From the sequence record PZ179880.1: a stretch of 64,000 bases of DNA. One strand, 5' to 3'. Of the stretch, positions 10,836-53,679 are shown in pieces. The notes under the pieces were generated by a model. That model was not told the origin of the DNA. It made no database searches and saw only the letters and a program-made list of their open reading frames with translations. Position 1 is the first letter of the stretch. Every line of letters starts with the position of its first letter. The position numbers were made by a program, and so were the translations under genes. This DNA comes from a phage.

Positions 10836-12005
10836 TTAAAAATATTTTTTAAAACTCATCATAACTTTATCATCAACATCATTATCAATCTGTGCTACAA
10901 GGTAAGATGACAGTTCTACTTCTTGTGGTGCGGATTGAACATTATCAGAATTAAGGTATTCACGAATCCAAGGATATGGATGTTTAACCGGAGCATCGGT
11001 AATTGGGCATGGAAGACCACACTGTTTCATACGAGATACAGTTAAGTAATCAATAAAGCTCCACATGCTATTTGTATTTAATCCAGGAACATCACCATCT
11101 TTAAATAAATGAACCGCCCAGTCTTTTTCTTGGCGGTTAACTTCCATGAAAATATCAACTGCTTCTTGTTCACACTCTTGAGCAATTTTAACCCATTCAT
11201 CACCATCAGTGCCAAGTTGAAGTTGACGAATAATATATTGGGTGCCTTTAAGGTGAAGTTGCTCATCACGAGCAATGAACTTCATAATCTTGGCATTACC
11301 TTCCATGATTTCCATGTTCTTATGGAAGTTAAAGGTACATGCGAAAGATACATAAAAACGAATAGCTTCCAATGCGTTGATTACGTGCAGGCAGAGGTAA
11401 AGAGATTTCATTAGTGCTCGTTTAGTACATTCAACAACTTTGCCTAACTCTTCTTTACGAAATCCTTCTGATAAAATTCCTTCATAATCTTCAACCGCAT
11501 TCTGATATTCACGAGTCTTAACTAGAACGTCATCATAATAACGACCAATAGATTCAGCACGTTTCATGATAGCTTCATCTAGTACAATCTCATCAAATAC
11601 CTTCGATGGATCAGTATAAAGATTTCGCATGATATGGGTATATGAACGGCTATGAATAGTTTCACTAAAAGTCCATGTAGCAACCCATGTATCAAGACTT
11701 GGGTCTGAAATTAATGACATAAGTACTGCAGACGGTGCACGACCCTGAATGCTATCTAGAAGTGATTGATACTTCAGGTTGTTAGTAAAAATATCTTGCT
11801 GATACTGAGGAAGCTTGTTAAATTGTGCAGCATCCATCATTAAGTTTACTTCTTCAGGACGCCAGAAAAATGACAACTGCTTTTCGGTTAAATCTTCAAA
11901 AACTTTATGACGTTGAATATCATAACGCGCAATACCAAGACCTGAACCGAAGAACATAGGTTCTTTTAAAACATCAACTGGGTTTGTATTAAAAACTGTA
12001 GACAT
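10836..12005 (-). CDS. nrdB: ribonucleotide reductase small subunit
   Basis: 389 aa from MSTVFNTNP; di-iron/tyrosyl radical family; contiguous (no intron). Confidence 0.9.
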   Translation of the reverse strand: MSTVFNTNPVDVLKEPMFFGSGLGIARYDIQRHKVFEDLTEKQLSFFWRPEEVNLMMDAAQFNKLPQYQQDIFTNNLKYQSLLDSIQGRAPSAVLMSLISDPSLDTWVATWTFSETIHSRSYTHIMRNLYTDPSKVFDEIVLDEAIMKRAESIGRYYDDVLVKTREYQNAVEDYEGILSEGFRKEELGKVVECTKRALMKSLYLCLHVINALEAIRFYVSFACTFNFHKNMEIMEGNAKIMKFIARDEQLHLKGTQYIIRQLQLGTDGDEWVKIAQECEQEAVDIFMEVNRQEKDWAVHLFKDGDVPGLNTNSMWSFIDYLTVSRMKQCGLPCPITDAPVKHPYPWIREYLNSDNVQSAPQEVELSSYLVAQIDNDVDDKVMMSFKKYF

Positions 12006-22445: not shown

Positions 22446-25400
22446 ATGGCCGAGATTAAAAGAAAGTTCAGAGCAGAAGACGGTCTGGACGCAGGTGGCG
22501 ATAAAATAATCAATGTAGCTTTAGCTGATCGTACCGTAGGAACTGACGGTGTTAACGTTGATTACTTAATTCAAGAAAACACAGTTCAACAATATGATCC
22601 AACTCGTGGATATTTAAAAGATTTTGTAATCATTTATAATAATCGTTTTTGGGCAGCAACGGATAATATTCCAAAACCTGCTGGAAGTTTTAATAGAATT
22701 CGTTGGAAAGCATTACGTACTGATGCCGTATATACAACCGTATCATCTGGACCATATCAATTAAAATCCGGAGAAGCAATTTCAGTAGATACATCAGTTG
22801 GTAATGACATTGAGTTTAATTTACCGCCTTCTCCGCTTGATGGAGAAACCGTAATAATTCAAGATATTGGTGGAAAACCTGGTATAAATCAGGTTAAAAT
22901 AAATTCTTCAAATCAGAGTATTGTTAATTTTAGAGGTGAACAAGTACGTTCAGTTCTAATGACTCATCCAAAGTCACAGATGATATTCATTTTTAATAAT
23001 CGTTTGTGGCAAATGTATGTTGCTGATTATAGCAGAGAAGCTGCGATTGTTACTCCATCGACTGCATATCAAGCACAATCTAATGATTTTATCGTGCGTA
23101 GATTTACTTCCGCTGCGCCGATTAATATTAAACTTCCGAGATTTGCTAATCATGGCGATATTATTAATTTCGTTGATTTAGATAAATTAAATCCACTTTA
23201 TCATACAATTGTCACGACATATGATGAAACAACTTCAGTACAAGAAGTTGGAACTCATTCTATTGAAGGCCGTACATCGATTGACGGTTTCTTGATGTTT
23301 GATGATAATGAAAAATTATGGAGATTGTTTGACGGGGATAGTAAAGCGCGTTTACGCATTATAACAACTAATTCTAATATTCGTCCAAATGAAGAAGTTA
23401 TGGTATTTGGAGCGAATAACGGAACAACCCAAACAATTGAACTTCAGCTTCCAACTGATATTTCCATTGGTGATACTGTTAAAATTTCCATGAATTACAT
23501 GAGAAAAGGACAAACAGTTAAAATCAAAGCTGCTGGTGAAGATAAAATTGCTTCTTCAGTTCAATTGCTGCAATTCCCAAAACGCTCAGAATATCCACCT
23601 GAAGCTGAATGGGTGACTGTCCAAGAATTAGTTTTCAATGGTGAAACTAATTATGTTCCGGTTTTACAACTTGCTTATATAGAAGATTCTGACGGAAAAT
23701 ACTGGGTTGTACAACAAAACGTTCCAACGGTTGAAAGAGTCGATTCTTTAAATAATTCTACTAGAGCAAGATTAGGCGTAATTGCTTTAGCTACACAAGC
23801 TCAAGCAAATGCTGATTTAGAAAATTCTCCGCAAAAAGAATTAGCAATTACACCAGAAACATTAGCTAACCGTACTGCTACAGAAACTCGTAGAGGTATC
23901 GCAAGAATAGCAACTACTGCTCAAGTAAATCAGAACACTACATTCTCTTTTGCTGATGACCTTATCATCACTCCTAAAAAGCTGAATGAAAGAACTGCTA
24001 CAGAAACTCGTAGAGGCGTTGCTGAAATTGCCACGCAACAAGAAACTAATACAGGTACTGATGATACTACAATCATCACTCCTAAAAAGCTTCAAGCTCG
24101 TCAAGGTTCTGAATCATTATCTGGTATTGTAACCTTTGTATCTACTGCAGGAGCTACTCCAGCTTCTAGTCGTGAATTAAATGGTACAAATGTTTATAAT
24201 AAAAACACTAATAATTTAGTTGTTTCGCCTAAAGCTTTGGATCAGTATAAAGCTACTCCAACGCAACAAGGTGCAGTAATTTTAGCAGTTGAAAGTGAAG
24301 TAATTGCTGGACAAAGCCAAGAAGGATGGGCAAATGCGGTTGTAACGCCAGAAACGTTACATAAAAAGACATCAACTGATGCAAGAATTGGTTTAATTGA
24401 AATTGCTACGCAAAGTGAAGTTAATACAGGAACTGATTATACTCGTGCAGTCACTCCTAAAACTTTAAATGACCGTAAAGCAACTGAAAGTTTAAGTGGT
24501 ATAGCTGAAATTGCTACACAAGTTGAATTCGACGCAGGCGTCGACGATACTCGTATCTCTACACCATTAAAAATTAAAACCAGATTTAATAGTACTGATC
24601 GTACTTCTGTTGTTGCTCTATCTGGATTAGTTGAATCAGGAACTCTCTGGGACCATTATACCCTTAATATTCTTGAAGCAAATGAGACACAGCGTGGTAC
24701 ACTTCGTGTGGCTACGCAAGTTGAAGCTGCTGCAGGAACATTGGATAATGTTCTAATAACTCCTAAAAAGCTTTTAGGTACTAAATCTACTGAAGCGCAG
24801 GAAGGCGTTATTAAAGTTGCAACTCGGTCTGAAACTGTAGCTGGAACGTCAGCAAATACTGCTGTATCTCCAAAAAATTTAAAATGGATTGTGCAGAGTG
24901 AACCTACTTGGGCAGCTACTACTGCGATAAGAGGTTTTGTTAAAACCTCATCTGGTTCAATTACGTTCGTTGGTAATGATACAGCTGGTTCTACGCAGGA
25001 CTTAGAACTATATGAGAAAAATAACTATGCAGTATCACCATATGAATTAAACCGCGTATTAGCAAATTATTTGCCGTTAAAAGCAAAAGCTGTAGATAGT
25101 AATTTATTAGATGGTTTAGATTCACTCCAGTTCATTCGTAGGGATATTGCGCAGACGGTTAATGGTTCACTAACCTTAACACAGCAAACGAATCTGAGTG
25201 CCCCTCTTGTATCATCTAGTACTGCTACATTTGGTGGATCAGTTTCAGCAAATAGTACATTAACTATTTCTAATACTGGAACGGCAACTCGTCTGATTTT
25301 TGAGAAAGGACCTCAAACTGGAACAAACCCGGCTCAAACGATGACAGTCAGAGTGTGGGGAAATCAATTTAGTGGGGAGTCAGACACAACACGTTCTACT

Positions 25401-32619: not shown

Positions 32620-32892
32620 TTATTTGTTTGTATACATCTCTAGATATCGATATACACCCTCAAAACCCTCGTTGAATTCGTCGATGAGGGTTTTCTTATC
32701 TTCTTGAGTTAATTCAGAAACAATTTTACGGAATGAATTCTGATTTAACTTTCTACCTTCATGCGTTACTCCAATCTCATTCAGAAATGCGATAAAATTA
32801 GCACGATTCTCAACAATATCTTCTCTGGAAAATTTAATCAAAATAGACGCAACAGTAATAATTTCACGAACTGTATCAATGTTTTTATTCAT
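32620..32892 (-). CDS. asiA: anti-sigma-70 factor AsiA
   Basis: 90 aa; sequence matches remembered T4 AsiA (MNKNIDTVREIITVASILIKF...). Confidence 0.9.
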   Translation of the reverse strand: MNKNIDTVREIITVASILIKFSREDIVENRANFIAFLNEIGVTHEGRKLNQNSFRKIVSELTQEDKKTLIDEFNEGFEGVYRYLEMYTNK

Positions 32893-34711: not shown

Positions 34712-35347
34712 TCATAGTTCAGATGCTACGGTGATTACAGCTTCAATGTTTTCTGCTGAGCGTTTAATGTCAAGATACACATTACCGTTTTTAGCGATTT
34801 TACATGACATTCCGATATCAATAAATTTCTGAATATGATGTTCCATCATTTTGTATCCAAAAATTCGCATATTTCCATTGTTGTTAATTTCAAAATTACG
34901 AATTCCGTGAGTGCGTTTTTCTAAAATAGCGAGATAGTTACTACGATAAGTTTCAACCTTTTTAAGAACAAATCCATTTTCATCTAAAAGTTTTAACATA
35001 AAGTCTTTATCTTCTTCCATATCAGAAGTAATCTCGCGAGCTTTACGAGTTGCTCGTTTTTTCAGCAGTTCAGGAGCGTTTTCCTGTGCGTATAAAGTTG
35101 CTGCATTTGAAATAATATCCTGAGCTTCACCAGTAATGATTAATCCATCACCAGATTTCTCTACTAGGCCTTTTTTAATCAATACCCCAATATTACTATT
35201 AACTACTGCATTACCTAAATCTGGATGCACCTCACGAACTTCTGCAGCTGCAATGAAATCTTTCTTAGCAATGGTAATTAAAATCGCAGCAGTTTTTTCA
35301 TTCAGAACATCGTTAGAAGCTTTGATGATGTAAGTTACTTTAGACAT
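34712..35347 (-). CDS. motA: middle-transcription activator MotA
   Basis: 211 aa; sequence matches remembered T4 MotA N-terminus; early promoter and terminator upstream. Confidence 0.9.
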   Translation of the reverse strand: MSKVTYIIKASNDVLNEKTAAILITIAKKDFIAAAEVREVHPDLGNAVVNSNIGVLIKKGLVEKSGDGLIITGEAQDIISNAATLYAQENAPELLKKRATRKAREITSDMEEDKDFMLKLLDENGFVLKKVETYRSNYLAILEKRTHGIRNFEINNNGNMRIFGYKMMEHHIQKFIDIGMSCKIAKNGNVYLDIKRSAENIEAVITVASEL

Positions 35348-51537: not shown

Positions 51538-52284
51538 TTATCCTCGGATAAGTTTAAAAATTGAACAATTTAGCGGGTATCCTCTTTTTAGTTTAAGTTT
51601 ATCAATAAAAGACAAGTTTTGATACCGCTCTACACCTTGAATAATTTTATCACACATATCATATTGCATTTCTGCTTCTGACAACTTTTTCACAGTTTTC
51701 CAATCAGAGCCTTTAAGAAGAACGTTCAATTTAACAACTTCAGTTCCTTCTGCTATACGAGAACCATCAATACGAGCTTTGAGTGCTACAATCGTTAGCT
51801 TAATATCAGAGGTTTGTTTTGATTTAGAAAGCTGAGAAATGTGCTCAATTCGGTTTTCACGTTTTTTCTGTATAGCTTTAATTTGATTATAAGTCTTTTT
51901 GATTTTAGCCCATTTCTTTTCATCTAAATTTAGTTTATGAACTTTTTTCGCAGATGAACGACCAATTCGCAAAGCAAATAAATCACGCTTTTCAATCAAC
52001 TCTTCTAAAGTATAATCAGAACGAAATGTATTGTACTTTTTCTTTACTGCAATAACATTCCCTTTAATGTATCCAACGTTATTATCAAAACGTTCTAATG
52101 ATAATTTCTCTCCTTCAATACGATTATCAAAAGGTTCTCCCGAGTAAGCGCAAACTTTCTGATCTAAAATGTTCTTAATGTAATTGAAGTCTAAGTTAAA
52201 ATCTTTAGAACGTCTTTTAGCGGATGCCTGAGTGTGCTCTAGACGACGTGTAATTTTACGAATTTGATTTTTAGACAGTTTCAT
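51538..52284 (-). CDS. srd: basic protein at srd position (putative anti-sigma/sigma-like Srd)
   Basis: 248 aa, Lys/Arg-rich; synteny modA-srd-dda.1. Confidence 0.5.
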   Translation of the reverse strand: MKLSKNQIRKITRRLEHTQASAKRRSKDFNLDFNYIKNILDQKVCAYSGEPFDNRIEGEKLSLERFDNNVGYIKGNVIAVKKKYNTFRSDYTLEELIEKRDLFALRIGRSSAKKVHKLNLDEKKWAKIKKTYNQIKAIQKKRENRIEHISQLSKSKQTSDIKLTIVALKARIDGSRIAEGTEVVKLNVLLKGSDWKTVKKLSEAEMQYDMCDKIIQGVERYQNLSFIDKLKLKRGYPLNCSIFKLIRG

Positions 52285-52307
52285 ATTTTTCTCACGGACG
52301 GGTTAAC

Positions 52308-52344
52308 TACTTATACTATAACATTTTTACTTCAGCTTGTAAAC
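52308..52344 (-). promoter_or_regulatory. early promoter for srd
   Basis: GTTTAC, 18 bp, TATAGT. Confidence 0.45.
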
Positions 52345-52353
52345 AACTTTATG

Positions 52354-52384
52354 AAAAATGCTTTAAAACTTTCATGGTATAATG
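52354..52384 (+). promoter_or_regulatory. plus-strand MotA-box promoter-like sequence (antisense to modA)
   Basis: AAATGCTTTA, 12 bp, TGGTATAAT on the plus strand; no plus-strand ORF downstream. Confidence 0.3.
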
Positions 52385-52400
52385 AATCTAAGTCCTTCCA

Positions 52401-53003
52401 TTATAGATTAAATCCTTCAAAGTCAAGAGTATAGATAGTGTATGTTGAATACTTTTTATATTCATATCTATCAGCAATTCTAAATACACTTCCAGCTGGT
52501 ATCATTACTTCTTGTTCATCTGAAACTAATTCCATATTACGATAGCGATGGCTATCTGGAAACTTAAAACTCGGACTATATTCTTTACAACGTAGAGCTT
52601 TTATAGCATACTCCTGGAAATTGAATACCATAGGAGCTTTGAATTCAAAAATAACTTGTGTGTTATATTCTAAACCGGAAGCAAAGTGTAGAGCTATATT
52701 TTTATCATATGAAGCTGATACGACTTTATCAAATGTAATAATATCAATTCCTTGATTTAATACTTGTTTAGTCTCAGCTGGAACACCTCTCCAAAGAGGT
52801 TTATCGTTTGGAACCAAACGAGATTTGATTATTTCATTTAACCAAGAGTGGTCATCTGGCTTATTAGTAATACAATGAATTAAAAGTTCAATTTCAGATA
52901 AATTAAATCCTTCAGAAAGTAATTCTTCACGAATAGAAGCACGCACCGATGCATCCATTGATTTTATTTTAAAATCTTTTAATTGCATTGCCGAATATTT
53001 CAT
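52401..53003 (-). CDS. modA: ADP-ribosyltransferase ModA
   Basis: 200 aa; R-S-E type motif (LWRG ... SASYD ... E). Confidence 0.7.
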   Translation of the reverse strand: MKYSAMQLKDFKIKSMDASVRASIREELLSEGFNLSEIELLIHCITNKPDDHSWLNEIIKSRLVPNDKPLWRGVPAETKQVLNQGIDIITFDKVVSASYDKNIALHFASGLEYNTQVIFEFKAPMVFNFQEYAIKALRCKEYSPSFKFPDSHRYRNMELVSDEQEVMIPAGSVFRIADRYEYKKYSTYTIYTLDFEGFNL

Positions 53004-53635
53004 TCAACTACCTCAATATCATACACTTTAAATGTTCCAAATGAATCGTGTAATTTTTCTTTTGAAATAAAAGTTATTTTATACTTTCCAATTGGAATCA
53101 TCCATTCTTGTTCACGTACAATCATCATTAAGTTATCAGTACGTTCTGAATCTAGCCCATCAGTATCTTCATATGTGTACTTGAACTCAGTATTAGGAGA
53201 AGAAAGTATAATATCGCTGATATGGTCAGAATAATTAAAAGCTTTATCAGTTTTTAAGCGAAGTATTATTTTAGTAAAATATTCAGCATAAGAAAAAGAA
53301 CATGCTGTGAGTAAACTAGTAGTAAATGAATCTACCCTGTTCGTTGAAAACACTTCTCCAACTTGTAAATCTTTAATAAGTTCTTTTGTCGATTTTGATA
53401 TACCACGATATAACTGATAAGGCGATTTAGTTAAATGCTTTTTAATGATTTTATTCAATTGCCGATGAAGAGCTTCATTCTTTTTGGCTTCCATACATTG
53501 CCAAAGAATTGACTGTTCAAAGTCAGTAAATTTTTCACAGACCTTTTTATACATATCATATTGAAAATCAACGCTTTCAGCTTTTATAGATAACTGTTCA
53601 ACATCTGCAAGATTAATAATCATGATAGCCTCCAT
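53000..53635 (-). CDS. modB: ADP-ribosyltransferase ModB
   Basis: 211 aa; paralogous ART motifs (LYRG ... FSTNR). Confidence 0.7.
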   Translation of the reverse strand: MEAIMIINLADVEQLSIKAESVDFQYDMYKKVCEKFTDFEQSILWQCMEAKKNEALHRQLNKIIKKHLTKSPYQLYRGISKSTKELIKDLQVGEVFSTNRVDSFTTSLLTACSFSYAEYFTKIILRLKTDKAFNYSDHISDIILSSPNTEFKYTYEDTDGLDSERTDNLMMIVREQEWMIPIGKYKITFISKEKLHDSFGTFKVYDIEVVE

Positions 53636-53644
53636 ATACTTCAG

Positions 53645-53679
53645 AAGCTATCATATCATTGTTAGGAAGGAAAGTAAAC
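53645..53679 (-). promoter_or_regulatory. early promoter for modB
   Basis: GTTTAC, 18 bp, TATGAT. Confidence 0.45.

Follow-up and report, generated by a model that had tools for sequence, protein, structure and literature searches.

The window, meaning the whole 64,000-nucleotide stretch of phage DNA analysed here (sequence record PZ179880.1), comes from a Tequatrovirus and is ~96% identical to T4 over srd-modA-modB. All three genes are encoded on the minus strand, and the spacer that separates srd from modA holds two sets of promoter elements facing away from one another. One is an early promoter that serves srd, and the other, on the plus strand, has the form of a T4 middle promoter and points into modA. 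T4 middle transcription is a textbook case of sigma appropriation, and both phage proteins on which this promoter class relies are encoded in the window. The relevant features are as follows.

32623 to 32892, minus strand: asiA, co-activator, 100% identical to T4 AsiA
34715 to 35347, minus strand: motA, trans-acting activator needed by the promoter class, 96.7% identical to T4 MotA
51538 to 52284, minus strand: srd, on the other side of the spacer from modA
52315 to 52343, minus strand: srd early promoter (-35 TTTACA at 52343->52338, 17 bp, TGn, -10 TATAGT at 52320->52315)
52356 to 52365, plus strand: MotA box AAATGCTTTA, with core TGCTTTA at 52359-52365 and AAA before the core, centred at ~-30 from the predicted start
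52366 to 52377, plus strand: 12-bp spacer AAACTTTCATGG, the last three bases of which (TGG, 52375-52377) are the TGn of an extended -10
52378 to 52383, plus strand: sigma-70 -10 hexamer TATAAT, a perfect consensus
52384 to 52410, plus strand: discriminator GAATCT, predicted +1 at A52390 and conserved transcript start AAGTCCTTCCATT...
52390 to 53635, plus strand: predicted transcript, non-coding and antisense to modA, possibly also to modB, drawn from the geometry
52401 to 53003, minus strand: modA, RNA polymerase ADP-ribosyltransferase, the gene into which the candidate fires
53000 to 53635, minus strand: modB, ADP-ribosyltransferase, lying upstream of modA in the early operon that they share
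53650 to 53678, minus strand: early-type promoter of the modB-modA operon (TTTACT, 17 bp, TGn-TATGAT)

Middle promoters of T4 carry a MotA box of consensus (a/t)(a/t)(a/t)TGCTTtA near -30, separated from the -10 by 12 +/- 1 bp, and about half of those known have a TGn (Hinton 2010). The box AAATGCTTTA is a perfect match to this consensus, and its spacing of 12 recurs in 34 of the 58 T4 middle promoters published. The element is base-for-base identical in T4 (NC_000866.4), with 11897 as the counterpart of window position 52390. The first-pass annotation had described a plus-strand MotA box, a 12-bp spacer and an extended -10, oriented antisense to modA/modB and back-to-back with the srd early promoter. 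Inspection of the sequence finds the promoter elements exactly as described, the orientation agrees with the minus-strand placement of srd, modA and modB, and the srd early promoter lies where it was said to, its predicted start site 82 bp from that of the candidate. The same annotation had seen no plus-strand reading frame downstream, and this too holds, in that the ORFs found there are short ones with no Shine-Dalgarno sequence and no conservation in other lineages. Of the two options that it offered, a middle-type promoter is supported by the presence of every defining sequence feature and of MotA and AsiA in the window; the other, a chance match, is taken up below.

Both minus-strand promoters have annotated counterparts, the srd early promoter in phages SA21RB and JB75 and the modB-modA promoter in SA21RB, in each case as a T4-type early promoter. 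The latter is oriented head-on toward the plus-strand candidate. In the T4 RefSeq record and two annotated relatives, the spacer annotation consists of the minus-strand early promoter only. A further match seen by eye, TTGACT and TATAAT separated by 15 bp on the minus strand (52400-52426), overlaps the modA stop just upstream of the srd early promoter; it resembles a sigma-70 promoter with a short spacer and was not returned by the promoter scan.

Rank in the genome and similarity to PuvsY

The strength of the candidate was gauged with a weight matrix that was derived from the T4 middle promoters mapped by experiment (58, listed in Table 1 of Hinton 2010) and that covers the MotA box, the spacing and the TGn plus -10. 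All 58 training promoters fit on the minus strand, with the -10 ending ~7 nt ahead of the listed start. When both strands of the window are scanned, the candidate ranks first at 22.9 bits, and the identical T4 site ranks first in the whole T4 genome with the same score, above every promoter on which the matrix was trained. Second in the both-strand ranking of T4 is another plus-strand site, near 76000 (21.8 bits), followed by PuvsY in third place (21.5 bits); the next plus-strand site stands 37th, at 15.9 bits. Among 200 T4 genomes simulated with a first-order Markov model and scored on either strand, the best score averaged 17.4 bits and the largest was 21.2, so that 0/200 reached the 21.8 bits of even the second site. 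Every one of the 58 mapped middle promoters is counter-clockwise, yet the two best consensus matches in T4 are clockwise, serve no gene and are kept across several genera, which implies at least one conserved job for MotA beyond the activation of middle genes. The candidate is both the best consensus match in its genome and a member of a PuvsY subfamily, and the first-pass annotation understated the case.

The scans additionally returned minus-strand sites of 16-18 bits that resemble middle promoters and fall outside the published list, namely window ~4823 (equivalent to T4 ~132780) and T4 148338, 90518 and 84118. At the listed Pcd start (T4 132839) neither a box nor a -10 can be recognised, and an 18.3-bit site lies 59 nt away, a mismatch that suggests either a coordinate discrepancy or an unlisted promoter.

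PuvsY, the promoter of oriF, resembles the candidate in its MotA box, in a spacing of 12-13 bp, in the sequence TGGTATAAT and in a run of 21 identical nucleotides from -15 to +6 (TGGTATAATGAATCTAAGTCC), which extends to 27/29 over a longer stretch. It differs in lying on the minus strand and expressing uvsY, whereas the candidate is on the plus strand, has no ORF and faces modA. Within the shared 21 nt, transcription from PuvsY has been mapped to the A in TCT[A]AG (T4 115371), and the start of the candidate is therefore placed by homology at A52390, 11 nt short of the modA stop codon on the opposite strand. A start-region motif, (A/G)AG(G/T)YC..TTCC, is common to the candidate, a second ORF-less plus-strand site and PuvsY of both T4 and RB69; in RB69 the motif reads GGTTTTAGGTCCTTCC, and the promoter runs on the minus strand of the contig from 701 (locus L077). 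An earlier candidate for the RB69 counterpart, Pm:112073, turned out to be the rnlB region.

An HMM of the sequence that follows the hexamer in orthologs of the plus-strand sites, run against all of T4, places PnrdC.7 and PuvsY among its top six matches, and the four matches at the two plus-strand sites, PnrdC.7 and PuvsY all fall directly after TGGTATAAT. These promoters point to a subfamily of middle promoters with a motif beyond the class consensus, TGGTATAAT-G[GA][ATG]TCT-AAG[TC]CC, which could reflect common descent, properties of open-complex formation or initiation, or a link to R-loops. Its minus-strand members in T4 are as follows.

115383->115366, minus strand: PuvsY
53337->53320, minus strand: PnrdC.7
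46453->46436, minus strand: PnrdD

The second plus-strand site, referred to here as the sister site, occupies T4 NC_000866.4 75966-76005 (~25966-26005 in contig L017), between genes 3 and 2, with a start at ~76000. Like the candidate it is clockwise and ORF-less, and at 21.8 bits it is directed antisense into the late genes 2 and 4; the two share the start sequence AAGTCC(C)TTCCATT. The sister site is kept in Tequatrovirus contigs, in Dhakavirus MX01 (L071, 2153-2200), in RB69 (L074, 960-1010) and in loci L058 and L060 (minus strand, from 990).

Conservation, geometry and predicted product

Related loci were gathered from GenBank phages and IMG/VR contigs with Srd as the anchor, at Srd identities from 99% down to 28%; searches of viral contigs with ModA alone or gp3 alone had returned only close or very distant relatives, and the Srd alignment was used instead. 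The resulting set comprises 36 loci (30 distinct sequences) from ~10 lineages with 34-99% Srd identity, among them Tequatrovirus, Mosigvirus/RB69, Dhakavirus, Gelderlandvirus, Marfavirus, the Pectobacterium PM2 type and the Serratia CBH8 type. At every locus with a full-length Srd and an upstream mod gene, the best antisense site in ~3 kb scores 15-23 bits. Across the 36 loci the orthologous sites are placed 10-60 nt beyond where the last mod gene ends and point back into mod, and an equivalent site is present in all of the MotA-encoding lineages examined that have a mod gene at this place.

Within these orthologs TATAAT is invariant and the distance from box to hexamer is always 12 or 13, while the sequence of the spacer and of the flanks differs. 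An alignment of the whole mod-srd spacer from 9 lineages has TATAATG as its sole invariant block, against a mean column identity of 45%. Among Tequatrovirus records, the 51-nt element is 100% identical in 255/443, as compared with 85/331 for the neighbouring 51 nt. That ~10 lineages retain an invariant -10 amid a diverged spacer points to selection for promoter activity. Marfa-type phages have dmd interposed between modB and srd, and their site remains next to modB, so that synteny, together with what is essentially one rearrangement, suggests that the site travels with mod rather than with srd.

Two absences fit an association with MotA and mod. The site is missing from Krischvirus JEP8, where a mod-like gene and srd are both present, and from phage Muldoon, in which a search of 15 kb turned up no mod gene. 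RB49, the type phage of the Krischvirus genus, yielded no motA (Nolan 2006), an observation that concerns RB49 and not JEP8 itself. In the lineages that have the site, phages with MotA homologues were found.

The arrangement of the candidate and the srd early promoter takes only two forms across the lineages compared. In the back-to-back form, seen in 5 lineages (T4, RB69-type, Dhakavirus, L043-type and PM2-type), the predicted starts are 67-84 bp apart. In the interdigitated form, seen in 4 lineages (the S16, L040, L037 and CBH8 types), they coincide (0, 0, -4 and -1 bp). The recognition elements of each interdigitated promoter lie inside the transcribed DNA of the other, and only one polymerase could therefore be bound at a time.

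Downstream of the start, no conserved ORF or Shine-Dalgarno sequence was found in 11 lineages, and the next plus-strand gene in T4 is >60 kb away. The predicted transcript is by its geometry fully complementary to mod mRNA, an arrangement present in all examined lineages with both mod and the site. The product of the candidate, if it has one, is thus predicted to be an RNA that is non-coding and antisense to modA, perhaps to modB as well. A search of Rfam assigned it to no family and gave just two matches, with E-values above 1, inside modA, and the first 150 nt of the predicted RNA have no more structure than shuffled sequence (z = 0.12). No strong terminator was found downstream. Weak hairpin and T-tract candidates occur at ~+400 to +540 in several lineages (~+400 to +470 in the window), and these are unconvincing because A-rich codons of the sense strand readily yield them; with a clear terminator missing, no defined RNA species can be predicted. 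Two adjacent hairpins with T-rich tails at 52785-52821 on the plus strand, inside modA, were flagged as terminator-like by a scan that gave 3 such sequences in 3 kb against 1.0 expected, and several other lineages have similarly weak candidates ~440-540 nt after the antisense start. The two hairpins are possibly the 3' end of the antisense RNA, or just a product of codon composition.

Possible functions of the site

The candidate genuinely belongs to the T4 middle-promoter class and is conserved; it is unusual in its orientation and in expressing no gene, and it very probably functions as a MotA-class promoter. An RNA is predicted to be made from ~52390, and its synthesis to depend on MotA. 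Five explanations were weighed for the role of such a site. That with least to commend it is the chance match in AT-rich intergenic DNA raised by the first-pass annotation, or a variant in which the sequence belongs to an UP element of the srd early promoter. The MotA box does lie at ~-48 to -57 of that promoter, the usual place of A/T-rich UP elements, and a loose pattern (TGCTTNA-N11-13-TANNNT) is not enriched in the window, with 8 occurrences found and 4.85 expected. Chance is nevertheless excluded by the genome-wide first rank, by the scores of the simulated genomes and by conservation of the MotA box, its 12-13 bp spacing and the TATAAT, always antisense, in ~10 diverged lineages amid a diverged spacer. 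The UP-element variant is ruled out by spacing: the box keeps a fixed 12-13 bp from the plus-strand -10 and a variable distance from the early -35 (8, 14 and 16 bp), and it therefore belongs with the former; in four lineages, moreover, it lies on the other side of the early promoter. The explanation as a whole is left with a vanishingly small probability. A gene for a trans-acting small RNA, the 5' end of which (AAGUCCUUCCAUU) is rich in pyrimidines and would base-pair with Shine-Dalgarno-like, purine-rich sequences in other mRNAs, would account for the conservation of the first 15-20 nt beyond what a promoter needs and for their recurrence at the second ORF-less site. This is nonetheless highly improbable given the lack of a terminator, of stable structure and of an Rfam match, the patchy conservation between lineages past ~+10, and the use of the same motif to begin the ordinary uvsY and nrdC.7 mRNAs. 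The site might instead be a real and conserved place of MotA and polymerase binding whose RNA is irrelevant, serving as a boundary or roadblock or representing a very strong promoter module retained through descent. Four T4 promoters have the -10 and start-region module in common, which suggests a copied strong cassette, and both plus-strand sites have a divergent minus-strand middle promoter 600-760 bp away (Pdda.1 at 11138 and P1 at 75393). The invariant -10 in ~10 lineages with otherwise diverged spacers, however, speaks for selection on activity and not on mere presence, and this explanation is judged quite unlikely; it overlaps with that of a cis-acting switch, from which it is hard to separate by sequence.

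The main rival to such a switch, unlikely but to be taken seriously, is that an unrecognised R-loop origin of the oriF/oriG type has the candidate as its promoter; a MotA-dependent transcript would then stay hybridised to A+T-rich downstream DNA and be processed to prime clockwise leading-strand synthesis. In T4, oriF and oriG each consist of a middle promoter and a downstream unwinding element (Kreuzer and Brister 2010). The promoter of oriG sets a precedent, being ORF-less and antisense inside gene 34. This promoter, P34i of ori(34), resembles the candidate as a middle promoter that runs antisense to the local gene and serves none; in the window it lies on the minus strand at 24648-24690 (start 24648) and scores 20.6 bits, the third best there. 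It differs in being counter-clockwise and inside a late-gene coding region, whereas the candidate is clockwise, intergenic and in a fixed arrangement with an early promoter. Also in favour of an origin are the 21-nt identity to the oriF promoter and the start-region motif that it shares with the candidate and the sister site, and the fact that all annotated T4 origins prime in the minus direction. Duplex stability has been counted on the same side, since the least stable 40-bp window within +1..+120 has -43.2 kcal/mol, as compared with -43.3 at oriG and -44.2 at oriF, and falls at the 2.5th percentile of the genome, but ~20 ordinary middle promoters are equal or lower and the measure is therefore non-discriminating. 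The motif likewise occurs at PnrdC.7, an ordinary gene promoter. A classic plasmid screen for T4 origins reportedly recovered only ori(uvsY) and ori(34), which counts against an origin here, although fragments with the toxic modA may have been unclonable in it. No origin is annotated or reported at ~11.9 kb (NC_000866; Kreuzer and Brister 2010), the nearest being oriA at 16.76 kb, 4.9 kb off. The sister site, which faces the late genes 2 and 4, fits an origin or a general boundary better than a role specific to mod. A broader form of the proposal, that candidate and sister site make up a conserved clockwise, ORF-less pair of unrecognised R-loop primer promoters or origins that launch rightward forks in T4-like phages, is rather doubtful. 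Were replication priming to prove correct, a classic replication model would gain new origins.

The preferred explanation, held tentatively at somewhat less than an even chance, is that the candidate is a genuine MotA/AsiA promoter that acts in cis to down-regulate the early modB-modA/srd unit. At ~2-4 min after infection, MotA and AsiA would accumulate and recruit RNA polymerase to the candidate, and the polymerase would transcribe clockwise from ~A52390, antisense through modA and probably modB. Three effects could ensue, namely production of an RNA complementary to mod mRNA, head-on collision with polymerases arriving from the modB early promoter, and competition with the adjacent srd early promoter for overlapping DNA. 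Their net outcome would be to help switch off the mod-srd early region as middle transcription begins, with reduced expression of mod and srd as the predicted consequence. A cis-acting switch is favoured because the site always lies just past the mod stop and fires into the operon, because in every case it overlaps or adjoins the srd early promoter, with just two fixed arrangements, because MotA would time it to the end of early expression, and because early shut-off is admitted to lack a known mechanism.

Cis-antisense or convergent interference is familiar from other phages, in the lambda oop RNA against cII and the P22 sar RNA against ant. As in the arrangement at the present locus, the promoter is positioned at the 3' end of a gene or past it and is directed back into that gene, in those cases lowering its expression. 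The oop and sar RNAs are, however, short, terminated and experimentally shown, whereas the RNA of the candidate is predicted and lacks a clear terminator; the candidate also differs in its expected dependence on a phage activator that would time it to the middle period. Several considerations weigh against the cis-acting switch. The site does not figure among the 58 mapped T4 middle promoters, no defined RNA species can be predicted for want of a clear terminator, and the association with the 3' end of mod draws on synteny and essentially one rearrangement. The sister site faces late genes and not a toxic early gene, so that a rationale specific to mod does not explain both sites, and the -10 and start-region motif held in common with the oriF promoter points towards an origin. 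Since the sister site is better accommodated by other models, confidence in the switch is kept guarded. In T4 the mechanism by which early promoters are shut off is unknown, and neither modA nor asiA mutations abolish the shut-off (Hinton 2010); silencing of modB-modA/srd, if true, would supply a concrete mechanism for part of it.

Earlier records and neighbouring leader sequences

The candidate is undescribed in the literature searched. Neither it nor the sister site is among the T4 middle promoters identified by experiment (58 in Table 1 of Hinton 2010), and an antisense modA/modB transcript receives no mention in the literature searched, including Uzan and Miller 2010 and Wolfram-Schauerte 2022. 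A T4 dRNA-seq preprint covering 4, 10 and 20 min (bioRxiv 10.1101/2024.04.04.588121) reports 22 antisense start sites, and the modA-modB circNC primers given there target the sense mRNA, as read from the primer sequences. The sole earlier trace found is in RB69, where Pm:12081(+), the ortholog of the candidate in the srd-modA spacer, and Pm:79256(+), the ortholog of the sister site, appear in a supplementary table of HMM hits with scores of 7.9 and 16.3, as table lines without discussion or test (Nolan et al. 2006, Additional file 4).

The leaders of the neighbouring minus-strand genes hold features of their own. The true start of modB is likely the ATG four codons into the listed 211-aa ORF, as the T4 annotation has it. 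The modB leader (53615-53665, minus strand) can fold into a hairpin (-17.3 kcal/mol) in which upstream sequence pairs with both the GGAGG Shine-Dalgarno sequence and the modB ATG, and which may provide translational masking of a toxic gene. In the srd 5' UTR, at window 52290-52300 (plus strand ..CACGGACG..), the motif TCTTACGGACG, which reads CGTCCGTAAGA on the srd mRNA, stands just upstream of the ribosome-binding site. The window differs from T4 by a 7-bp deletion at this motif, which is kept in T4, RB69-type, L025-type and Dhakavirus phages despite a diverged leader.
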